A DNA stretch of 64,000 nt from an uncultured Flavobacteriaceae bacterium (GCA_947502495.1 CANNAC010000001.1:618906-682905); one strand, 5' to 3'; shown: positions 35,487 to 46,702, counted from the first letter of the stretch. Program-made: numbers and translations. Notes: generated from the sequence alone by a model not told the origin.

Positions 35487-35523
35487 ATAATTTCTAGTCA
35501 TTAGAAGTATTTAAAGTACGTAT

Positions 35524-36102
35524 TTGGAAGAACAAGATTTTATAGATGATTTAAGAGCAGGAAAGCAATTTGCCTATGGAAAGCTATTGGATTTATTTCA
35601 GCAAAAAGTATTCGCTACTTGCATCTCCTTTGTTCCAAATAAAGAGGATGCCGAAGATATTGCACAAGACGTTTTTGTAGAAGTTTTTAATTCGATACAT
35701 AAGTTTAAAGGAAACTCTAAATTATCTACTTGGATTTATAGAATCACTACCAATAAGTGTCTGGAATTTATTCGGAAAAAGAATACGAAAAAGCGTTTTG
35801 CGTTTTTACAATCGTTAACCGGAAATGATATTGCATTAGATAAAACAAATTACTTTACAGAGATAAATCATCCAGGAATTGTCTTAGAACAGAAAGAAAC
35901 TAGTGACACCTTATTTCTTGCAATTAATAAACTACCAGAAGCACAACGAATAGTATTTACATTAAATAAAATAGACGATAAAAGCTATAAGGAAATTAGC
36001 GAAATTACGGATAAAAGTATCAGTTCTATTGAGTCTTTATTGTTTAGAGCAAAGAAGAATTTACAAATCTCATTAGAACATTTTTATAAAAATGAAAAGT
36101 AA
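35524..36102 (+). CDS. ECF sigma-70 factor
   Basis: DAEDIAQDVF, STWIYRITTN (region 2); LPEAQR..FTL, SYKEISE, SLLFRAKK (region 4); TTG start. Confidence 0.93.
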   Translation: MEEQDFIDDLRAGKQFAYGKLLDLFQQKVFATCISFVPNKEDAEDIAQDVFVEVFNSIHKFKGNSKLSTWIYRITTNKCLEFIRKKNTKKRFAFLQSLTGNDIALDKTNYFTEINHPGIVLEQKETSDTLFLAINKLPEAQRIVFTLNKIDDKSYKEISEITDKSISSIESLLFRAKKNLQISLEHFYKNEK

Positions 36103-36133
36103 GCGCAAGTTTTTACAAATTTATGCATCTTAA
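36103..36133 (+). promoter_or_regulatory. Candidate ECF promoter P1
   Basis: GCGCAAGT-N15-CATCTTAA; CAAGT 36106-36110, CATCT 36126-36130. Confidence 0.7.
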
Positions 36134-36138
36134 TATAT

Positions 36139-36450
36139 ATGGAATCAAATAAAAACATACAAGAAAAAATAGATAACGCGTTTAAAGCTGCCGAAGCTAT
36201 AGAGCCAGTATCTGTATCTCCTTTTTTTAAAGATAAAACCATGCAACGAATGTTCTCTGTAAAAGAAGAAGAAAAAGTTGCTTGGTCTTGGTTCTCACCA
36301 AAATTACAGCTTGCTACTTTGGCTTGTGTGATTGTCATAAATGTAATAGCATTTACGCAAGTAAATAAAACAAGTTATGATGAGAATATTAATCAATTTG
36401 CAGAATCGTACGGTTTAAAGACTAGCGACTCTAACTCTTTATTAAATTAA
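36139..36450 (+). CDS. Putative anti-sigma factor (single TM)
   Basis: Directly downstream of the ECF sigma; short cytoplasmic N-terminus, VSPFFKDK, one TM. Confidence 0.6.
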   Translation: MESNKNIQEKIDNAFKAAEAIEPVSVSPFFKDKTMQRMFSVKEEEKVAWSWFSPKLQLATLACVIVINVIAFTQVNKTSYDENINQFAESYGLKTSDSNSLLN

Positions 36451-36983
36451 TGAATATGAAAAAAAATACCGTTTTATATATTTTACTTGTCTTTTTAGTC
36501 CTTTTTAATGGTTTTTTTCTTTTTAACTTTTTAGGAGAAATAAGTTCCGATAAAGGGAACGAAACGAAAGACCCAATGCGCTTTGTAAGGCAGCAATTAA
36601 ATTTGAGTGCATCGCAAATAGAAACTTTTGAAATTATAAACAAAGAACATCATCAAAAAATGAGGGGTTTTAATGATGATTTAAGAGGCTTAAAAGACGC
36701 GTTGTTTAATAATATTTCTGAAAATTCTTTAGATGAAGAAAGTGTCGACTCTATTGTAACCTTAATTGGTGAAAAGCAAAAGGTAAAAGAAATGGAAATT
36801 TATGATCACTTTAAAAGTATTCAAGAACTTTGTGATGCAAAACAAAAAGAAAAATTCAAGAAGATATTAAAAGATGCTATTCGTAGAGGTGATGGAAATA
36901 GACCTCCGCATCCAGAAGGTCAAAAAGGTCAAAAAGGTCGAGAAGGAAATGGGCATAGACCGCCTCCACCAAACGATTTTTAA
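36450..36983 (+). CDS. Spy/CpxP/ZraP-like periplasmic heavy-metal-sensor protein
   Basis: N-terminal TM, QLNLSASQ (LTxxQ-like), helical body, Pro/Gly-rich tail. Confidence 0.75.
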   Translation: MNMKKNTVLYILLVFLVLFNGFFLFNFLGEISSDKGNETKDPMRFVRQQLNLSASQIETFEIINKEHHQKMRGFNDDLRGLKDALFNNISENSLDEESVDSIVTLIGEKQKVKEMEIYDHFKSIQELCDAKQKEKFKKILKDAIRRGDGNRPPHPEGQKGQKGREGNGHRPPPPNDF

Positions 36984-36999
36984 TACCTAAATAATAAGT

Positions 37000-37032
37000 A
37001 AAAGACTCTTCCATAGGAAGGGTCTTTTTTTT
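37000..37032 (+). terminator. Intrinsic terminator
   Basis: AAAAGACTCTTCC/GGAAGGGTCTTTT stem (one G-U) plus T run. Confidence 0.8.
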
Positions 37033-37054
37033 GGCTTTTATTTAACAATAACCC

Positions 37055-37085
37055 GCACAAGTAATTTCAATTAATACCATCTAAA
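37055..37085 (+). promoter_or_regulatory. Candidate ECF promoter P2
   Basis: GCACAAGT-N15-CATCTAAA; CAAGT 37058-37062, CATCT 37078-37082. Confidence 0.7.
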
Positions 37086-37113
37086 AGTACATAACAAATA
37101 AAATATTACAATT

Positions 37114-37398
37114 ATGAAAAGTAGCACATTTAAAACAATAGTATTGGTTTTCGGACTAACAGTATGTATGTCAAATTCTAGTTTTGCACAATCGCAAGAC
37201 AGACAACAAAAGACACCTCCAACCTTTAGTGAGTTAGTAAAAGAAATGGATGCCAATGAGGATGGGAAACTTTCAGAAGATGAACTTAAAGGACCTTTAA
37301 AAGATAATTTCGATAAAATAGATACCGATGAAGATGGGTTTATTACAGAAGAAGAATTTGACAAAGCACCAAAACCAAAAGGTAGAGGAAAGAGCTAA
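37114..37398 (+). CDS. Secreted two-EF-hand protein
   Basis: Signal ending SFA-Q; loops DANEDGKLSEDE and DTDEDGFITEEE. Confidence 0.9.
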   Translation: MKSSTFKTIVLVFGLTVCMSNSSFAQSQDRQQKTPPTFSELVKEMDANEDGKLSEDELKGPLKDNFDKIDTDEDGFITEEEFDKAPKPKGRGKS

Positions 37399-37446
37399 AA
37401 AAAGTAGAAGATAGTTTTTTTGAGTGATTAGTAAATTGTTATTAAG

Positions 37447-37474
37447 GCTTCGTAAGTAATTACGAAGCTTTTTT
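37447..37474 (+). terminator. Intrinsic terminator
   Basis: GCTTCGTAA/TTACGAAGC stem plus T run. Confidence 0.75.
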
Positions 37475-37518
37475 AAAACTACAAAATGTAATAAATAATA
37501 GAATTAAAGAAAACAATA

Positions 37519-38235
37519 ATGAAACAAATAAAAAGAGGTATCCATTTTCTTTTTGTGTCTTTAACATGTAGCACTTCCTTACTAACTTTCCATGCTTGTA
37601 CTAGCGATGACGTTATTACAACAACAGTAGAAGAAGTAGACGACACCGATTTTGAACCAACAGATTGGACTACAATAACACATAGTAGTGATGTAGACCC
37701 CAATATGGAAGAGGTTTTTGATGACAACACCGTAAAAAAACTAGAAATTGTTATTACAGAAGCGCGTTGGCAAAGTATGCTAGAGGATATGACAGAAACC
37801 TATGGAGCATTTGGAGCAGGCGCAGCTACCAGAACAATGAATACCAAAGAAGGTTCGATTTTTGTTCCTGCTGGAGTATTCTATAAAGGACTAGAATGGT
37901 ACCGAGTTGGTGTGTCTTTTAAAGGGGATTCTAGTTTACAAAGTAGTTGGCAAAATGGGATTTTAAAACTATCCTTCAAATTAGATTTCGACTTGTTCGA
38001 TAAGGATTACCCACAAATAGAAAACCAACGCTTTTATGGTTTTAAAAAATTAAATCTTAACAATAATTTTGATAACAAATCCATGTTGCGGGAAAATGCA
38101 ATTAGTGATGTCGATAAAGATTCAGGAATGGTACCATCTTATACAGCTTTTTATAAAGTGTATATAAATCATGGAGATGGAACTGAGTATTTTGGTTTAT
38201 ATACTCTGGTGGAAGAAGTGGATGATACCGTTTAA
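37519..38235 (+). pseudogene. CotH-kinase-family lipoprotein, 3'-truncated
   Basis: Lipobox FHA-C; VGVSFKGDSSL, KLSFKLDFD, FYGFKKLNL, YFGLYTLVEEVD; stops immediately after this motif, before the DxD catalytic region. Confidence 0.7.
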
Positions 38236-38268
38236 CATAATTTCTATAGCTTTTCAAACAAATAAACA

Positions 38269-39018
38269 ATGAAGATATTCAGAAAAATAAGAAGAACTTT
38301 AATTGCTTCGGGTAAAACTAAAAGTTATATCATCTATGCTTTTGGAGAGATTCTATTAATTGTTATTGGGATATTAATTGCTTGGAAGATTAATAGTATA
38401 AATGAAATCCGAAAAAATAGAATTGTAGAAGTAAAAATATACCAAAGTTTAAATGAAGAGTTAAATACTAATTTAATACTATTAGATTCTTCTATTGTTC
38501 GCTATGCAAGAAATGTACAAACCATTCAAAACACAATAAAAAGTATTCGTTCGCAACCGCAGGAAATTACAGAAGAACTAAAAGAAGGAATTATTAATGT
38601 TAAGTTTCAGTCCACAAAACTGCAAAGTGCATCTATAAACTCGGTAAGTAGTACCAACAAATTTGAATTTATTAAAAGTGACTTACTAAGAGATTTAATT
38701 GCTTCGTACCCAAATGAGTTAAATAATTTTGAAAACCAAGATGCTAAAATCGGAAATATTATTATAAACCGTTTGCAGCCAGTAATAGAATCTCATGTTT
38801 CATTAATTGATATTTTATTAAATCGGGAATCAAAATATAATAAAAATACTTCTTTTTCGGGAACATCCGATTATGTAAAACTATTAAACAATAGAGCATA
38901 CCAAAATGTATTGGTAGACAGGCTAATACAAACAGAAAATCAATTGATAATTGGTAATAACTTAAGAGACAAAACACAAATAATAGCTTATAAGCTGAAT
39001 AAAGAATTAGGTAATTAA
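38269..39018 (+). CDS. DUF6090-like protein
   Basis: MKIFRKIRR..YAFGEILLIVIGILIAWKINSINE N-terminal signature. Confidence 0.8.
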   Translation: MKIFRKIRRTLIASGKTKSYIIYAFGEILLIVIGILIAWKINSINEIRKNRIVEVKIYQSLNEELNTNLILLDSSIVRYARNVQTIQNTIKSIRSQPQEITEELKEGIINVKFQSTKLQSASINSVSSTNKFEFIKSDLLRDLIASYPNELNNFENQDAKIGNIIINRLQPVIESHVSLIDILLNRESKYNKNTSFSGTSDYVKLLNNRAYQNVLVDRLIQTENQLIIGNNLRDKTQIIAYKLNKELGN

Positions 39019-39034
39019 AAATAAGTACTAGAAA

Positions 39035-39065
39035 GCACAAGTTTTTTGATAATAACACATCTAAA
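39035..39065 (+). promoter_or_regulatory. Candidate ECF promoter P3
   Basis: GCACAAGT-N15-CATCTAAA; CAAGT 39038-39042, CATCT 39058-39062. Confidence 0.7.
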
Positions 39066-39091
39066 GATTAAATCAATAATATCATTCCAAT

Positions 39092-39628
39092 ATGAATAAC
39101 AACAACTTAAAAACAACCATAACCATATTTAGCATGTTACTATGTTTTAGCCTTTTTGCGCAAGGACCTCCAGGAGGCGGACAAGGTGGTAGAGGCGGTG
39201 GAAAAGGACAGCAAAGAGAAAAACCAGATGCATCCGAAATTCTAGACAAACTAGATACCAATAGAGATAACCTTATTGATAAAGACGAAGCTGCTGCAGA
39301 TAAACGTGGAAAAATTGCAGAAGATTTTTATGAAATAGATACCAATGATGATGGGTTTATTGATTTAGAAGAACTGAAAGATTCTTTAAACGACAGAAAG
39401 AAACCGAAGAAAATTTCCGCTAAAAAAATAATAGAGGAAGTAGATGATAATGGAGATGAAACCTTAAACGAATTAGAGGTTGCAGCAAAAGGAAAGAAAG
39501 CACTTTTTGAGAATTTTAGAGAAATAGATACGAATGAAGATGGAGAACTGGATCTAGAAGAACTAAAAGTGTTTTTCAAAAAAGATGCGGATGACGATAA
39601 AAAATCAAAGCGTAAAAAAAGAGATTAA
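39092..39628 (+). CDS. Secreted four-EF-hand protein
   Basis: Signal ending LFA-Q; Gly-rich linker; loops DTNRDNLIDKDE, DTNDDGFIDLEE, DDNGDETLNELE, DTNEDGELDLEE. Confidence 0.9.
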   Translation: MNNNNLKTTITIFSMLLCFSLFAQGPPGGGQGGRGGGKGQQREKPDASEILDKLDTNRDNLIDKDEAAADKRGKIAEDFYEIDTNDDGFIDLEELKDSLNDRKKPKKISAKKIIEEVDDNGDETLNELEVAAKGKKALFENFREIDTNEDGELDLEELKVFFKKDADDDKKSKRKKRD

Positions 39629-39637
39629 TTATTCAAA

Positions 39638-40738
39638 ATGGGTAAAATGAGAAATGTATATAAAGCAGTAACCATAGTGTTAATGGGTATATTTGTTGGT
39701 TGCAAAAGCAATTCACATAGTCATGATGGTTCCGAAGCGCATACACATGCTACGGATTCTAAATCTATAAATAATACAGATTATTTTGGGGAGTACGATC
39801 TAGAAGATGCAAGTTATGGTACAAAAACAAAAGTAACTATTAAAGGCGATCAACGTGTAATGGTAACAAATGCATTACCAAATCATAAAACTGGGGAGTT
39901 TCCAAATTCAGGAAACCCTAATACCATTTCGGTACAAAATAAAACCTATAGTTTTCCTGTAAATCCAAAATATAAAGGAAATGCAAAATGGGTAAGAGAG
40001 CCTGGTGTGGCTTTAAATGGAATAAAATTCGAACCAGGAACTGCCGAAGTTGTAGTTTGTGATACCGGCGAAAACTATCGTGTGGAAGCGCTTCAAGATG
40101 TTATTGATCTGGGATTAGATTTTAATCATGCACATGTACAACCAACTGGTGCATACCATTATCATGGTACACCAACTTCTGTTATTGCAGATTTTGATAG
40201 CGGACAAGATTTAGTGCATGTTGGATTTGCGCATGATGGTTTTCCTATGTATTACTCCAAAAGTGGTAAATATAAACCAAGCTACAAACTTTTAGACGGA
40301 GACCGAGAAGGCGAAGATTGTACATACAGTACGCATAAAACTATTGACATTTCTGTAGGTGGACATCATGATGGAACCTATGGTTCCGATTTTGAATATG
40401 TAGAAGATTCAGGTGATTTAGATGCTTGTAACGGAATTACTATAGATGGAAATTATATGTATTTAGTGACTACCGAATTTCCATACATCAGCAGATGTTT
40501 AATGGGCGATTATGAAGAAGCTAGGCCTCAAGGTGCTGAAGGAAGAAGAGCAAATGGAGGAAATGGAGGACGTCCAAATATTTCAGAATTAATTAGTGAA
40601 ATGGATACGAACAAAGATGGAAAACTATCCAAGGAGGAAGTGAAAGGACCGCTAGCCGAGGATTTTTCAAAAATAGATTTGAATAAAGATACGTTTCTTA
40701 CTAAAGCCGAATTGGAAAAAGGACAAAGTAAACGCTAG
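39638..40738 (+). CDS. YHYH-domain lipoprotein with His-rich N-terminus and two C-terminal EF-hands
   Basis: Lipobox FVG-C; SHSHDGSEAHTH; NALPNH, GVALNG, GAYHYHG, GDLDACNG; DTNKDGKLSKEE and DLNKDTFLTKAE. Confidence 0.88.
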   Translation: MGKMRNVYKAVTIVLMGIFVGCKSNSHSHDGSEAHTHATDSKSINNTDYFGEYDLEDASYGTKTKVTIKGDQRVMVTNALPNHKTGEFPNSGNPNTISVQNKTYSFPVNPKYKGNAKWVREPGVALNGIKFEPGTAEVVVCDTGENYRVEALQDVIDLGLDFNHAHVQPTGAYHYHGTPTSVIADFDSGQDLVHVGFAHDGFPMYYSKSGKYKPSYKLLDGDREGEDCTYSTHKTIDISVGGHHDGTYGSDFEYVEDSGDLDACNGITIDGNYMYLVTTEFPYISRCLMGDYEEARPQGAEGRRANGGNGGRPNISELISEMDTNKDGKLSKEEVKGPLAEDFSKIDLNKDTFLTKAELEKGQSKR

Positions 40739-40802
40739 AAAAGGCTTTTAGGCGCAAAAAAAGAGGAAAAGCAAAAAGTCTCAAAAATTATTTTAAAAAA
40801 TA

Positions 40803-40833
40803 ACGCAAGTTAATTTCACTAAAGACATCTAAA
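40803..40833 (+). promoter_or_regulatory. Candidate ECF promoter P4
   Basis: ACGCAAGT-N15-CATCTAAA; CAAGT 40806-40810, CATCT 40826-40830. Confidence 0.7.
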
Positions 40834-40857
40834 TATCAAATACTAAAAATTTATACT

Positions 40858-41628
40858 ATGAAAAACTTATTTAAATTAACATTTCTAGCACTGTTTTTAA
40901 TAACAGGATTCATTGCTTGCTCGAGCGATGACAGTAATTCTTTAGTCGATGGAGAAGAGGAAGAAGGAGGAGAAGAAGAAGTGGTAACAGAATTACATGC
41001 AGCATACGCAGCATTTAATACCGAAGCTGTAGATATTTATTTATCTAATGATGGCGCATCTGTAACGATAGAAACCACTGGTTTACCAAATCACGAAACC
41101 GTGTATTGGGGAGAAGGTAATGCACTTTACAGAGCAGAACCAGATGTGGATTTAACACCATCTATTATGTCTAGTAATAACAATGCAGTAAGTATTACTG
41201 TAGATGCTGTGCCAGATTTAACAGGTAGCACAGTAAGTACCAATTTTGATACGATAGGTATTGCCGTTAGTGGAGCATCTATTTTTAATGATCAAGAAGG
41301 TGGCGGTGCTTTAGATGCAGCAGCGGCTAGTTTAGATTGGACGGGAGCACACATTGGCCCTGGAGTTTACCACTACCATTTAGAGCCTAAAGCATTTTCA
41401 GATGACGATGAAAATCTAGTTGGTGTATTATTAGATGGCGTTTTTCTTTACGGAAGAAAGTGTAATGCAGCAGGATCTTATCCTTCAGATTTAGATGCAT
41501 CAGGTGGTCATACAACTGCTACGCAATATACAGATGGTCAAGAAGAATACCATTACCATATTATTAACGAATTATATTCAAATACAGGTTCATATATCGC
41601 ATTTGCAGGACCTTACCAAGGATACTAA
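40858..41628 (+). CDS. YHYH-domain lipoprotein
   Basis: Lipobox FIA-C then SSDD; TGLPNH, IGIAVSG, GVYHYHLEP, DLDASGGH, EYHYH. Confidence 0.88.
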   Translation: MKNLFKLTFLALFLITGFIACSSDDSNSLVDGEEEEGGEEEVVTELHAAYAAFNTEAVDIYLSNDGASVTIETTGLPNHETVYWGEGNALYRAEPDVDLTPSIMSSNNNAVSITVDAVPDLTGSTVSTNFDTIGIAVSGASIFNDQEGGGALDAAAASLDWTGAHIGPGVYHYHLEPKAFSDDDENLVGVLLDGVFLYGRKCNAAGSYPSDLDASGGHTTATQYTDGQEEYHYHIINELYSNTGSYIAFAGPYQGY

Positions 41629-42246
41629 ATGAAAGCTTTTAAACTATATTTATTACTTATTTCTATTTTTCTTATTGCTTGTGACAGTACAACCAACAAG
41701 AAAGATATCACTGCTGGCGCTATAGCTAAAACGCAAATAGATACTGCTGCCGTGGTTAATAAAGATAGTTTAATTTTAAATGGAAATAAAGGAGTTTGGT
41801 CTTATAAAGATCAACCGTTTACAGGCTATGCGGTTCGATTCTATGCCAATGATTCTTTAAAAGAAAGAACAGGTTTTTTAAATGGTAAAAAACAAGGAGT
41901 CTATAACGTTTGGTTTGAAAACGGCGTTTTGAAATTAGAATCTAATTATAGTCACAATGTATTGGAAGGCATATACAAAACATGGTGGAATAACGGTGTT
42001 TTAGCATCGGAAACTAACTATGTAAAAGGGAAAAAACAAGGGGTAGAACAAAAATGGTTTTCTAATGGGGAATTATCCAAAAAAAGCAATTTATTAGAAG
42101 GTAAAGAAGATGGTTTACAGCAAGCTTGGCTAGAAAACGGAAAGCTATATGTAAACTATGAAGCTAAAAACGGACGTATTTTTGGAATGCGTCGTGCGAA
42201 CTCTTGTTACCAATTAAAAGACGAAGTGGTTATTAGAAAAAAATAA
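41629..42246 (+). CDS. MORN-variant repeat lipoprotein (YwqK-like annotation)
   Basis: Lipobox LIA-C; tandem NGKKQGVYNVWFENG-type repeats. Confidence 0.85.
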   Translation: MKAFKLYLLLISIFLIACDSTTNKKDITAGAIAKTQIDTAAVVNKDSLILNGNKGVWSYKDQPFTGYAVRFYANDSLKERTGFLNGKKQGVYNVWFENGVLKLESNYSHNVLEGIYKTWWNNGVLASETNYVKGKKQGVEQKWFSNGELSKKSNLLEGKEDGLQQAWLENGKLYVNYEAKNGRIFGMRRANSCYQLKDEVVIRKK

Positions 42247-42250
42247 GCTT

Positions 42251-42916
42251 ATGAAAAATCTATTTATTATTACGCTAATCCTTTTTACAAGTTGTAATAC
42301 GGAAGTAAAAAAAGAAAATATTAAAGTTGTTGAAAATAGCAGAGTAGCTTATTTACCTTTTTATGATGACGAATCGTTTACGCCCAAATGGATAACTCCA
42401 AATACGGAAGAAGAAAAAACATTTCATAAAATCCCAGATTTTTCATTAACCAATCAATTAGGAGAAACGGTAAGTCAAAATACATTTGAAAATAAGATAT
42501 ATGTAACCGATTTCTTTTTTACTAGCTGCCCAGGTATTTGTCCGAAAATGACAGGTAATATGGCACTAATTCAGGAAGCATTCAAGGACGATAACGAGGT
42601 TTTATTATTATCGCATTCTGTAATGCCAACTACAGATTCTGTATCTGTTTTAAATACCTATGCTAAAACCTATGGAGTTATAGAGAATAAATGGCATTTG
42701 GTTACTGGAGATAAAAAGGATATTTATACCTTAGGAAGAGAGCAGTATTTTGTGGAAAATGATTTGGGAGAACCAAAAAATATAAACGATTTTTTACATA
42801 CCGAAAACTTTCTGCTAATAGATAAAAACAAGCACATTAGAGGCATTTATAATGGCTTAAATAGAGCTTCCGTAGCACAGTTAATTACCGATATAAAAGC
42901 ACTTAAAACGGAATAA
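42251..42916 (+). CDS. SCO1/SenC-family copper chaperone lipoprotein
   Basis: DFFFTSCPGICPKM (CxxxC) and FLHTENF conserved His. Confidence 0.93.
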   Translation: MKNLFIITLILFTSCNTEVKKENIKVVENSRVAYLPFYDDESFTPKWITPNTEEEKTFHKIPDFSLTNQLGETVSQNTFENKIYVTDFFFTSCPGICPKMTGNMALIQEAFKDDNEVLLLSHSVMPTTDSVSVLNTYAKTYGVIENKWHLVTGDKKDIYTLGREQYFVENDLGEPKNINDFLHTENFLLIDKNKHIRGIYNGLNRASVAQLITDIKALKTE

Positions 42917-42988: not shown

Positions 42989-45900
42989 ATGTATCCAATA
43001 ATGTCGAAAAAATTATTCTGTAAACTTTCTATTTTTTTATTTCTTTGTTCTTGTGCGACCTATAAAGCACAGTACAATACCAACACTTCAAATACTAGTT
43101 TTCCGGATAAAGAAATCGAGCATTCGTTCTATTTAATTGGGGATGGAGGTAATTCGCCTATGGGAGAATCTTCCAAAACACTACAAGCTTTTAAAGCGGA
43201 ATTGGCAAAAGCTACCAAAAATAGTACAGCACTTTTTCTAGGAGATAATATTTATCCGAAAGGATTACCTAAAGAAGAAGCGGAAGGTAGAGCACTTGCA
43301 GAACATCAGTTAAATATTCAAACGCAAACCACAGCAGATTTTAAAGGAAAGGCTATTTTTATTCCTGGAAATCACGATTGGTATAGCAACGGACTTAAAG
43401 GATTAAAACGCCAAGAGAAGTATATCGAGAATATTTTAGGTAAAGACACTTTTTTACCAGAAAATGGCTGTCCTATAGAAAAAATACATGTTTCCGATGA
43501 TGTCGAATTAATACTTATTGATACACAATGGTTTGTTACCAATTGGGATAATCATCCAACCATTAATGACGATTGTGAGATTAAGACTAGAGCATTGTTT
43601 TTTGACGAATACAGTAGTTTAATAAAAAAAGCTAGAGGTAAAACAACCATCGTAGCTCTGCATCATCCTATGTATACCAACGGTATTCATGGCGGTCAAT
43701 ATGATTTTAAAAGTCATATGTCACCTGTTCCTGTTTTGGGGTCTCTTAAAAATCTACTGCGAATCACTACTGGAGTTGCGAATGCAGATATACAAAACAA
43801 ACGATATAATGAATTAAGAAAACGACTGATAACTATTTCGCAAGAAAACAGTAAAATCGTTTTTGTTTCTGGGCATGAGCATAATTTACAGTATTTAGTA
43901 GAAGATAATTTACGTCAAATTGTAAGTGGTTCTGGTTCTAAAGTTACTGCTACTAGAAATGTTGGTGGTGGTCAGTTTTCTTACGGAACGCCAGGATATA
44001 CCAGATTAGATGTGTTTAAAGATGGTTCTTCATATGTACGTTTTTATTCGGTAGAAGACGATAAAATTGTATTTGAAACCGAAGTACTAAAGCCAGATAC
44101 AGATAAAACAGATACCATGTATCCGAAAACATTTCCGAAAGAAATGACTGCTTCTATTTATTCCGAAGAAGAAACCGATAAATCTGGTTTAACAAAATTT
44201 CTTTGGGGAGAAAGATATAGAAGTACCTACAGCACAAAGGTTACCGTGCCAACAGTAGATTTAGACACGCTTTTTGGAGGTGTAACTCTTGGTCGTCGTG
44301 GCGGTGGAACACAATCTAAATCCTTACGTCTTATTACTAAAGATGGGAAAAAACAATATGTAATGCGTGCCATGCGAAAACTTGGTACACAGTATTTACA
44401 AGCTGCATTTTTTAAAGATCAATATCTGGATGGTAAGTTCGACGATACCGCAGCAGAAGATTTAATTTTAGATGTATTTACGGGTTCGCATCCGTATGCA
44501 CTTTTTACGGTTGGTGATTTATCGGATGCTGCAGGCATTTATCATTTAAATCCAAAACTATATTATGTTCCGAAGCAAAATGCACTAGGAGATTATAACG
44601 AACAATTTGGGGATGCTTTATATATGATTGAAGAACATGCTTCTGATGGGCATGGAGATCAAGCAAGTTTCGGATTTTCGAATACCGTTTTAAGCACTAC
44701 AGATGTGATGAAAGAGCTTCATCAAGATGAAGATATGGTCATGGATGAAGCAGCTTATATTCGTGCGCGTTTATTCGATATGTTAATTGGCGATTGGGAT
44801 AGACATCAAGATCAATGGCGTTGGTTAGAGTTTAAAGAAAATGGTAAAAAAGTATACCGACCTTTACCAAGAGATAGAGATCAAGTGTTTTCTATCATGT
44901 CGGATGGTGCAATGCTAACCTCGGCCGTAGCTCTTATTCCTACCGCTAGATTGTTACGAAGATATGATGATGATTTAGTAGATGTTCAAGGTGTAAATGT
45001 AGAACCGTATCCTTTAGATATGGAATTTATTATGCAATCGGATAAAGGTGTTTGGGATGCCCAAGTAAAAGTCATTCAAGAAGGGGTTACCGATGCCGTT
45101 ATTGATACCGCTTTTTTAAATTTCCCAGAAGAAGTTAGGGGAGAAGTAACCGATAAAATTAAAGCAACTTTAAAAGCACGTCGCGCTAATCTTCAAAAAA
45201 TATCGGATAGATATTACGACTTGGTAAATAAATTCGCAGTTATAAAAGGTACAAATAAAGACGATTGGTTTGATGTGGAGCGTTTGTCTAACGGAAAAAC
45301 AAAGGTTACAGCATATCGAATTAAAGGTGGAGAAAAAGCAGATATATTTCATGAATGTATTTATGATAATGAGAAAACTAAAGAAGTATGGATTTATGGT
45401 TTAGATGACGATGATACTTTTCATGTCTTTGGAAAGGATACCAAAAACCAAATGCGTGTGCGTTTAATTGGCGGACAGAATAATGATGTATATAATATTG
45501 AAGAAGGAAAACGTATTACGTATTACGATTATAAGTCTAAAGAAAATACCATTATTACTAATAAAGGGCATCAAAAATTTTCAGACGATTACGAAACGAA
45601 TGTGTACGATTACAAGAAATTAAAAAATAATATAAATCAGATTATTCCAACCATTGGTTCGAATCCAGATGATGGCTTGAAAATAGGGGTTTCTAATACC
45701 TATACGGTTTATGGTTTTGAACGCAATCCTTTTACATCACAACATACACTTTCTGCTGCTTATTATTTTGCAACTAATGGTTTCGAATTGGATTATAAAG
45801 GAGAATTTGCTAATGTATTTAAAGGATTGAATTTCGGATTAGATCTTCATTTTAACAGTCCGAACTATTCAATAAACTTCTTTGATTATGGGAACTCTAC

Positions 45901-46702
45901 TCCAAATTTTGAAGCAGATGATAACGAGGCTTTCGATGTCGATTTAGATTATAACCGAGTTAAAATAAGAACATTTTTTGCGATGCCTTCTTTAGTATGG
46001 CGCGGACAATTAGGAGGTTATTTTAAAGTTGGTGTTTTATTTGAAAACAATGAAGTAGAAAGAACTAACGGACGATTTATTAACTCATTTATAGGAGATG
46101 GAAACGAAGTAAGTAACACTTTTTATGGTGCAGATGCTGCATATTCTTTTGAAAATAAAGACAATGAAGCATTCCCAACTTTAGGGATGCAATTTGGTTT
46201 ACAAGTTGGTTTTAAAAACAATATAGATTCTAATAAAGGATTTGGGTATATCATTCCAGAATTAGGTTTTGATTATAAATTAATCCCGAGTGGTAAATTA
46301 GTTTTGGCAACCAATTTTAGCGGTCATTTTAATTTAGGAGATAATTTTGAGTTTTATCAAGCAGCAACTTTAGGGGCAAATACTGGGTTACGTGGGTATA
46401 GAAACGAACGTTTTACCGGTAAAAGTGCATTTGTGCAGAGTACCGATTTACGTCTTAATTTTTTAAGTCTTAAAACCAACTTATTGCCAATAAGCCTTGG
46501 TGTTTATGGTGGTGCCGATTATGGTCGTATTTGGGTAGATAATGATTTGGTAGCAAATAGTTCTTATAATAGCGACAGTTGGAACACTTCCTTTGGGGGT
46601 GGTGTTTTTGTTACTATGGTAGAAATGTTTACTGCAAATGTATCTGCTTTTAATAGTGACGATGGGATGCGTTTCGCTTTTAAATTAGGCTTTGGGTTTT
46701 AA
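42989..46702 (+). CDS. Lipoprotein: metallophosphoesterase + kinase-like domain + C-terminal beta-barrel
   Basis: Lipobox LCS-C; GD, GDNIY, GNHDW, HH, GHEH phosphoesterase motifs; GDWDRH and DRD; amphipathic strands ending FKLGFGF. Confidence 0.85.
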   Translation: MYPIMSKKLFCKLSIFLFLCSCATYKAQYNTNTSNTSFPDKEIEHSFYLIGDGGNSPMGESSKTLQAFKAELAKATKNSTALFLGDNIYPKGLPKEEAEGRALAEHQLNIQTQTTADFKGKAIFIPGNHDWYSNGLKGLKRQEKYIENILGKDTFLPENGCPIEKIHVSDDVELILIDTQWFVTNWDNHPTINDDCEIKTRALFFDEYSSLIKKARGKTTIVALHHPMYTNGIHGGQYDFKSHMSPVPVLGSLKNLLRITTGVANADIQNKRYNELRKRLITISQENSKIVFVSGHEHNLQYLVEDNLRQIVSGSGSKVTATRNVGGGQFSYGTPGYTRLDVFKDGSSYVRFYSVEDDKIVFETEVLKPDTDKTDTMYPKTFPKEMTASIYSEEETDKSGLTKFLWGERYRSTYSTKVTVPTVDLDTLFGGVTLGRRGGGTQSKSLRLITKDGKKQYVMRAMRKLGTQYLQAAFFKDQYLDGKFDDTAAEDLILDVFTGSHPYALFTVGDLSDAAGIYHLNPKLYYVPKQNALGDYNEQFGDALYMIEEHASDGHGDQASFGFSNTVLSTTDVMKELHQDEDMVMDEAAYIRARLFDMLIGDWDRHQDQWRWLEFKENGKKVYRPLPRDRDQVFSIMSDGAMLTSAVALIPTARLLRRYDDDLVDVQGVNVEPYPLDMEFIMQSDKGVWDAQVKVIQEGVTDAVIDTAFLNFPEEVRGEVTDKIKATLKARRANLQKISDRYYDLVNKFAVIKGTNKDDWFDVERLSNGKTKVTAYRIKGGEKADIFHECIYDNEKTKEVWIYGLDDDDTFHVFGKDTKNQMRVRLIGGQNNDVYNIEEGKRITYYDYKSKENTIITNKGHQKFSDDYETNVYDYKKLKNNINQIIPTIGSNPDDGLKIGVSNTYTVYGFERNPFTSQHTLSAAYYFATNGFELDYKGEFANVFKGLNFGLDLHFNSPNYSINFFDYGNSTPNFEADDNEAFDVDLDYNRVKIRTFFAMPSLVWRGQLGGYFKVGVLFENNEVERTNGRFINSFIGDGNEVSNTFYGADAAYSFENKDNEAFPTLGMQFGLQVGFKNNIDSNKGFGYIIPELGFDYKLIPSGKLVLATNFSGHFNLGDNFEFYQAATLGANTGLRGYRNERFTGKSAFVQSTDLRLNFLSLKTNLLPISLGVYGGADYGRIWVDNDLVANSSYNSDSWNTSFGGGVFVTMVEMFTANVSAFNSDDGMRFAFKLGFGF

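Follow-up and report, generated by a model that had tools for sequence, protein, structure and literature searches.

A 64,000-nucleotide stretch of DNA from an uncultured Flavobacteriaceae bacterium (GCA_947502495.1, CANNAC010000001.1:618906-682905; hereafter the window) carries four copies of a bipartite motif, CAAGT-N15-CATCT, each shortly upstream of a gene unit. The first unit encodes a candidate anti-sigma factor and a Spy-like protein, and the other three encode exported proteins of EF-hand, YHYH, MORN and SCO1 type. The motif is very probably a promoter, read by RNA polymerase carrying the sigma factor, of the extracytoplasmic function (ECF) type, that is encoded at 35524-36102. An earlier note on this DNA had proposed that sigma factor as the reader of the motif. 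Comparative analysis supports the proposal through the strand specificity of the motif, its fixed spacer, its fixed distance from genes and its linkage to the sigma gene. The sigma gene and the four predicted promoters are as follows, with positions counted from the first nucleotide (nt) of the window.

35524-36102, + strand: ECF sigma gene, 192 amino acids (aa), TTG start (Pfam Sigma70_r2 4.5e-16, Sigma70_r4_2 5.8e-16)
36103-36133, + strand: predicted promoter P1, GCGCAAGT-N15-CATCTTAA, position weight matrix (PWM) score 34.9 bits, directly after the sigma stop codon
37055-37085, + strand: predicted promoter P2, GCACAAGT-N15-CATCTAAA, PWM score 24.3 bits
39035-39065, + strand: predicted promoter P3, GCACAAGT-N15-CATCTAAA, PWM score 37.5 bits, the top score in the window
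40803-40833, + strand: predicted promoter P4, ACGCAAGT-N15-CATCTAAA, PWM score 30.5 bits

The motif in the window and in related genomes

On the two strands of the window, CAAGT-N15-CATCT has exactly four matches (at 36106, 37058, 39038 and 40806), where base composition predicts about 0.13. All four are intergenic and on the + strand, and CATCT ends 8, 31, 29 and 27 nt before the ATG at P1, P2, P3 and P4, respectively. Allowing up to one mismatch yields nine matches, compared with 3.7 +/- 1.7 in shuffled sequence, and none of 100 shuffles reaches nine. A PWM trained on orthologous loci alone, with the window sequence excluded from training, recovers only P1-P4, at 24-37 bits, while everything else in the window scores below 8 bits. 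Applied to 20 shuffles, the same matrix gives at most one match in each, the best of them scoring 17.8 bits.

These results bear out most of what the earlier note had described. It had reported four copies of RCRCAAGT-N15-CATCTWAA at 36103, 37055, 39035 and 40803, with a spacing of exactly 15 nt, on the coding strand and 9-32 nt before the gene starts. The copies read as described, and the measured gaps agree. Its by-eye impression that the window holds no further copies matches the computed scan, and its division into anti-sigma/Spy, EF-hand, EF-hand/YHYH and YHYH/MORN/SCO units is correct by domain searches. It had also remarked on the absence of TAnnTTTG, and there is indeed none on the + strand in the regions upstream of the four units (36103-36138, 36984-37113, 39019-39091 and 40739-40857).

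The comparative set comprised 80 Flavobacteriaceae loci (1.25 Mb) with sigmas 70-95% identical, from genera including Lacinutrix, Oceanihabitans, Algibacter, Olleya, Winogradskyella, Polaribacter, Kordia and Maribacter. Here, the sigma strand has 246 copies of CAAGT-N15-CATCT and the opposite strand one, and spacers of 10-14 and 16-21 nt give only 0-5 matches per strand. No site falls in the approximately 7.8 kb upstream halves of the loci; all lie between about 55 nt before the sigma gene and more than 8 kb downstream of it. Five loci have no exact match, and these carry one-mismatch sites at the same places. Positions outside the search pattern are also conserved, namely C at -1 (96%), R at 0 (100%) and T6-T9 (75-94%), with AAA following CATCT in 91-98% and G or A preceding it. 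The extended consensus is thus aC[R]CAAGTTTTt - ~10 nt - [G/A]CATCTAAA.

Three features of these sites are those of ECF promoters: a spacer of fixed 15-nt length whose sequence varies between copies and species, a constant orientation at a short fixed distance upstream of genes, and linkage to a sigma/anti-sigma operon, as in auto- or feedback regulation. The start codons of EF-hand and YHYH genes cluster sharply 27-30 nt after CATCT; for the anti-sigma candidate, this gap is 8-13 nt in most loci. The first gene after a site is the anti-sigma candidate in 73 cases, an EF-hand gene in 73, a YHYH gene in 48, CotH in eight and a VTC-domain gene in four, with a few others; EF-hand proteins are the commonest first gene after sites other than P1. 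All 80 loci have a site between sigma and the next gene (72 exact, eight with one mismatch), whereas 31 of the 80 have one upstream of the sigma gene itself (reverse-strand control, 0). Therefore, what is invariant in the circuit would be that sigma drives the genes of the anti-sigma candidate and the Spy-like protein, and not that it drives its own.

A blind genome scan, a check that the earlier note had suggested, points the same way. The pattern CRCAAGTTTTT-N11-CATCTAAA was searched in one genome per species (185,579 species) and matched at least 118 stretches; the matches listed are nearly all from Bacteroidota. Among them, 91 of 118 8-kb stretches contain a sigma homologue. Most of the remaining listed stretches hold EF-hand, YHYH, MORN, SCO or CotH genes, and about ten hold none of these. 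The matches listed include distant sigmas of 43-51% identity from Arcicella, Emticicia, Saprospiraceae, a Porphyromonadaceae metagenome-assembled genome (MAG) and an Ignavibacteria MAG, and the loci of Arcicella and Emticicia (Cytophagales) also have the YHYH-MORN-SCO trio. The sigma operon and the EF-YHYH-MORN-SCO operon point away from each other in Flagellimonas and Allomuricauda, and there the orientation of the motif matches that of the downstream gene. Overall, the motif is physically linked to orthologues of the sigma at 35524 in at least about 170 genomes.

The earlier note had called the regulon local. This holds for about 90% of the blind matches listed, and is qualified by a few possible remote members in other genomes, such that the regulon is mostly local, not provably entirely so. 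In three different genomes (stretches L162, L178 and L181), a motif site lies 55-96 nt upstream of genes for homologous large secreted proteins, and tblastn finds no reference cluster genes within the 8 kb of these stretches. These secreted proteins may be remote regulon members. Similar single cases are L117, L125 and L082; from reading its sequence, we take the L117 protein to be a haem-peroxidase-like lipoprotein.

The relationships of the sigma factor extend the comparison beyond Bacteroidota. The protein encoded at 35524 scores 95.8 bits against the NCBIfam sigma70-ECF superfamily model (cut-off 42.9), and its Pfam domains are r2 and r4_2 only. Compared with classified ECF sigmas, it shows 44% identity to ECF04_1609 of Chlorobium tepidum (sequence from the supplement of PMC3817407), 37% to an ECF249s16 member and 31% to an ECF03 member. 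The original group ECF04 has been absorbed into ECF249 in ECF classification 2.0 (Casas-Pastor et al. 2021).

Among 80 ECF04 loci from Chlorobi (L199-L278), CAAGn-N15-CGTC occurs 103 times on the sigma strand and six times on the other, with a spacer of 15 only. Most CAAGn-N15-CGTCA sites lie directly after the sigma stop codon (approximately 20-90 nt), at the place equivalent to P1. In one Chlorobi locus, the order is sigma, a 117-aa protein with one transmembrane (TM) segment and a 186-aa Spy-like protein, and the variant promoter stands before the one-TM gene. The -10 letter tracks the sigma lineage: it is A in 78 of 80 Flavobacteriaceae loci and G in 72 of 80 Chlorobi loci, with none crossed. 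The CATC form is absent from the Chlorobi loci, and the CGTC form from the Flavobacteriaceae loci. Because these relatives combine CGTC with the same -35 box and spacing, CAAGT/CATCT is best seen as a variant of the usual ECF signature, not as a separate class.

Within the sigma itself, a search for residues that co-vary with the -10 letter gave no clean separator once distant CATC-type sigmas were included. In the loop that precedes KLSTW, CATC lineages have K/R-G and Chlorobi have R-E-E, which is suggestive only. A second, GC-rich set of matches lies 250-500 nt upstream of the Chlorobi sigma genes and may reflect coding conservation.

Promoter or another element

Several observations weigh against assigning the motif to the neighbouring sigma. 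Typical ECF boxes contain AAC at -35 and CGT at -10, whereas the boxes here are CAAGT and CATCT; AAG in place of AAC and CATC in place of CGTC depart from the commonest ECF signature. Neither do they reproduce the motif predicted for ECF249, CGCAACTTT at -35 and GTT at -10 (Casas-Pastor et al. 2021), since the -35 is CGCAAGTTT (G for C) and the -10 is CATCTAAA. The sigma gene has no copy of the motif upstream, either in the window or in its three closest relatives. Further, Bacteroidota genomes encode many ECF sigmas, so that recognition by a paralogous sigma is conceivable. Searches of sequencing runs with this locus and with the orthologous locus of Polaribacter returned only DNA metagenomes of close relatives, or nothing; the contigs of those relatives display polymorphisms, not 5' ends. 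The proposed anti-sigma factor, a 103-aa protein, also resembles nothing familiar. There is no consistent Pfam match among 60 orthologues, their profile retrieves only noise and no relative from the PDB, and no domain of ZAS/RsrA, RseA, CnrY or other known anti-sigma families is recognisable in it.

As the sigma gene lacks a site of its own, sigma is not autoregulated in the window genome. A DEAD-box helicase gene ends 37 nt before its TTG start (window 35487-35526; likewise in the closest relatives, L001-L003), and this TTG is kept across genera. No TAnnTTTG occurs within 1.4 kb upstream of the sigma gene, and no terminator is predicted between 35300 and its start. With no ECF site, TAnnTTTG or predicted terminator between the two genes, sigma is probably transcribed together with the helicase gene in this genome.

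The missing upstream site also bears on an alternative that we consider unlikely, namely that the motif is a real promoter read by another ECF sigma elsewhere in the genome, the neighbouring sigma being a co-regulated passenger. Genomes of Bacteroidetes encode about 22 ECF sigmas on average (PMC7826278), and several loci have a second, approximately 30%-identical sigma gene nearby. However, this second gene is found in a minority of loci only, while the motif co-localises with orthologues of the sigma at 35524 in the 91 listed stretches already described. A reader encoded elsewhere would also sit poorly with a -10 letter that follows the lineage of this sigma without crossing, and with the 31 loci in which the sigma gene itself bears a site.

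Alternatively, the boxes could be the operator of a DNA-binding repressor or activator instead of -35 and -10 elements. Conserved upstream motifs can be transcription-factor sites, yet we judge this very unlikely. The two boxes form neither a palindrome nor a direct repeat, and the motif keeps strictly to the orientation of the downstream gene, at a tightly fixed distance from the start codon. Its geometry, GCAAGTT-N15-TCTAA, comes close to that of the Escherichia coli sigma-E (RpoE) promoter, GGAACTT-N16-TCAAA/TCTGA. Moreover, the four regions offer no alternative sigma-A box, and no transcription-factor gene is conserved in the cluster. It is scarcely credible, finally, that the motif belongs to a transcribed cis-regulatory RNA or to a mobile or duplicated repeat. 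Four copies within 4.7 kb, beside paralogous EF-hand genes, would invite such an explanation, but it is already largely refuted. Only the two boxes are common to the four copies; because spacers and flanks differ and a repeat finder run around the four sites found no extended repeat, the copies are not one duplicated segment. Between species, too, the spacer is free and the boxes invariant. Rfam yields a single match, to a snoRNA at chance level (E = 0.44) and within coding sequence, and no structure is predicted for the 26 nt that immediately precede and overlap the P3 start.

The regulon and its proposed circuit

The reading of the motif as a promoter of the sigma at 35524 gives each element a predicted role. 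CRCAAGTTTT would be the -35 element contacted by sigma region 4, and CATCTAAA the -10 element contacted by sigma region 2. At ECF promoters, transcription usually starts 6-8 nt after the -10 box. Starts about 6-8 nt after CATCT would therefore leave leaders of approximately 20 nt on the regulon genes and of 0-6 nt on the anti-sigma candidate. The P1 unit comprises the following features.

36139-36450, + strand: anti-sigma candidate, 103-aa single-pass membrane protein, recognised by conserved position, size and topology
36450-36983, + strand: Spy/CpxP-like (LTXXQ) protein, membrane-anchored or exported, 177 aa, recognised by its orthologue profile versus Spy
37000-37036, + strand: intrinsic terminator closing the P1 unit, 13-bp stem and T-run, folding z-score -4.0

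The anti-sigma candidate directly follows the sigma gene and the motif in 73 loci, and its N-terminus is kept from M1; position, size and topology suggest its role. The Spy-like protein has an N-terminal hydrophobic segment and a tail rich in Pro, Gly and His. A profile of 60 orthologues matches Spy (3oeo) with E = 2.7e-4 over profile positions 39-145, covering the whole helical-hairpin domain with two LTXXQ-type motifs. Pfam LTXXQ is found in 31 of the 60 orthologues and Metal_resist in 26, while the window protein taken alone stays under the Pfam cut-off (26 versus 29.2 bits). Compensatory changes preserve the terminator stem in relatives. Within the tail of the Spy-like gene, positions 36905-36931 form a 9-nt tandem repeat, GGTCAAAAA GGTCAAAAA GGTCGAGAA, of which one unit is missing at 36916 in three metagenome relatives.

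The remaining three units contain the following features.

37114-37398, + strand: exported 94-aa protein with two canonical EF-hands (Pfam EF-hand_1, EF-hand_5, EF-hand_6 and EF-hand_7, E ~1e-9)
37444-37478, + strand: terminator-like hairpin and T-run after the 94-aa EF-hand gene, 12-bp stem, z-score -2.9 (86-nt stretch)
39092-39628, + strand: exported 178-aa EF-hand protein (Pfam EF-hand_7 3.9e-14)
39638-40738, + strand: YHYH lipoprotein with C-terminal EF-hand (Pfam YHYH 1.1e-52, EF-hand_5 7.6e-8)
40858-41628, + strand: YHYH-domain lipoprotein (Pfam YHYH 9.7e-8)
41629-42246, + strand: MORN-variant repeat lipoprotein, abutting the YHYH gene (Pfam MORN_2 1.3e-11)
42251-42916, + strand: SCO1/SenC family protein, encoded last in the P4 unit (Pfam SCO1-SenC 7.9e-25)

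The terminators before P2 and after the 94-aa EF-hand gene support the promoter reading. The YHYH/EF-hand lipoprotein gene at 39638 is probably read from P3 along with the 178-aa EF-hand gene, from which it is separated by 9 nt. The YHYH-MORN-SCO order is kept in most loci, Cytophagales included. Products of all four units bear signal peptides or lipoboxes, and the output is therefore a set of exported Ca2+-binding and metal-handling proteins.

In the proposed circuit, the 103-aa single-pass membrane protein would keep sigma inactive by sequestration. An envelope or metal-ion signal, sensed in the periplasm with the help of the Spy-like protein, may free it. Freed sigma would then act at P1 on a near-leaderless mRNA for the anti-sigma candidate and the Spy-like periplasmic protein, providing negative feedback. 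It would also act at P2 on the EF-hand protein, at P3 on the second EF-hand protein and the YHYH/EF-hand lipoprotein, and at P4 on YHYH, MORN and SCO1, raising these exported proteins along with the P1 products. This is a stress regulon of an ordinary bacterial kind, solid and conserved across marine Flavobacteriaceae.

Across six species, the footprint at P2 has invariant boxes, a free spacer, a conserved short leader and a terminator stem kept by compensatory changes. The block between terminator and -35, TTTTGGCTTTTATTTAACAAT (37029-37054), and the leader CATAACAATAAAAT (37086-37113) are near-invariant in these species. The former could be an UP-like element and the latter a translation-initiation region.

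Other genes in and beside the cluster carry no site of their own. A CotH gene at 37519-38235 is a remnant, whose 238 aa correspond to residues 9-253 of an orthologue of 485 aa and cover just positions 2-92 of the 322-position Pfam model; the next gene begins 34 nt on. The remnant has no motif site, whereas full-length CotH directly follows one in eight other genomes. Between the remnant and P3 lies a gene without a motif for a 249-aa DUF6090-like membrane protein (38269-39018), which is a conserved cluster member in several genera at 54-82% identity (L097, L114, L136, L139, L185 and L192). Beginning 72 nt after SCO1, likewise without a site, is a gene whose 1237-aa product has a calcineurin-like phosphoesterase domain at its N-terminus (42989-46702).

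Known sigma systems and wider significance

The closest described system is ECF249, and the sigma at 35524 resembles its members in sequence and in having sigma2 and sigma4 domains only. The published classification gives ECF249 a one-TM putative anti-sigma at +1 and infers autoregulation, and describes for subgroup ECF249s3 an EF-hand and SCO1/SenC neighbourhood and a conserved Cys in sigma2 (Casas-Pastor et al. 2021). The present locus has the one-TM protein at +1 and both kinds of neighbour, and a conserved Cys also appears in the consensus of the family of the sigma at 35524. The gene context is thus already on record, since the ECF249s3 description includes these neighbours. In contrast to the autoregulation of the published summary, the universal site here lies after the sigma gene and the window genome has none upstream. 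Additionally, the ECF249 description mentions neither the multi-copy regulon (YHYH, MORN, CotH/VTC) nor a Spy-like third gene. The sigma system is therefore a well-defined new case of a known type, partly anticipated by the account of ECF249s3. The literature searched contained no experimental study of any ECF249/ECF04 member, and we found none linking YHYH or EF-hand proteins with ECF sigmas. A start-site atlas of Flavobacterium psychrophilum reported only a CGT-type ECF motif.

Better-known regulators offer partial parallels. As in RpoE and SigW systems, the predicted promoters are bipartite and rich in information, their spacer is rigid, the sigma is clustered with an anti-sigma (here a candidate) that would be transcribed by feedback, and the output consists of exported envelope proteins. 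The -35 core, however, is AAG and not AAC, and the -10 is CATC and not CGTC/TC. Scores against the NCBIfam equivalogs fall far below cut-off (SigW, 124 versus 209; RpoE, 97 versus 236), and the anti-sigma candidate is no relative of RseA or RsiW.

In CpxP-CpxA and in CnrH-CnrY-CnrX of Cupriavidus, a regulator is paired with a periplasmic protein of the Spy/CpxP fold. Like these systems, the locus combines a regulator with a single-pass membrane partner of very small size and with a periplasmic helical-hairpin protein of LTXXQ type that would itself be under the regulated promoter, closing a feedback loop. Unlike in those systems, the similarity is to Spy, with CnrX, CpxP and ZraP not retrieved from the PDB at E <= 10. 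The anti-sigma candidate resembles nothing solved, and the gene order is sigma, anti-sigma candidate, Spy-like.

The housekeeping sigma-A promoter of Bacteroidota has TTG at -33 and TAnnTTTG at -7. It serves the same organisms and has similarly short, A-rich 5' leaders, of about 20 nt by our estimate here. Nevertheless, the four upstream regions lack TAnnTTTG, and box sequences and geometry differ wholly. A scan of the window with a sigma-70-type consensus gave fewer matches than shuffles; this consensus is irrelevant for Bacteroidota.

The position of the invariant site has a methodological consequence. An earlier analysis searched for motifs only upstream of sigma genes, obtaining motifs for 29 of 43 groups and no ECF04 promoter (Rhodius et al. 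2013). A site between the sigma and anti-sigma genes would explain why the ECF04 promoter was missing from such searches, and motif searches confined to sigma upstream regions can miss a conserved site.

We speculate, with more doubt than conviction for the picture as a whole, that the locus represents an ancient envelope-signalling module common to Bacteroidota, Ignavibacteriota and Chlorobiota. This module would unite a sigma of ECF04/ECF249 type with an anti-sigma that is very short and unclassified and with a Spy-like periplasmic protein. The only sigma-dependent promoter to be invariant in it would lie between the sigma and anti-sigma genes, making the module a feedback-first circuit with a near-leaderless anti-sigma mRNA. 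Between phyla, -10 specificity would have switched from CGTC to CATC while the -35 box and spacing were kept. In marine Flavobacteriaceae, the module may have taken on a regulon for Ca2+ buffering and copper handling in the periplasm (EF-hand, YHYH, MORN, SCO1, CotH/VTC), which would point to a dedicated divalent-cation or envelope stress response.

In Bacteroidota, ECF sigma factors outnumber all other regulators, and to our knowledge almost none of them has a defined promoter or regulon in this phylum. Similarly, we know of no established role for exported EF-hand, YHYH and SCO1 proteins in these bacteria. The present locus offers a high-information, directly testable promoter model together with a compact predicted regulon of such proteins. 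Its CATC and CGTC variants of sigma and promoter provide a natural pair for studying the evolution of -10 specificity, and the system may supply an orthogonal sigma/promoter pair for Bacteroidota genetics.

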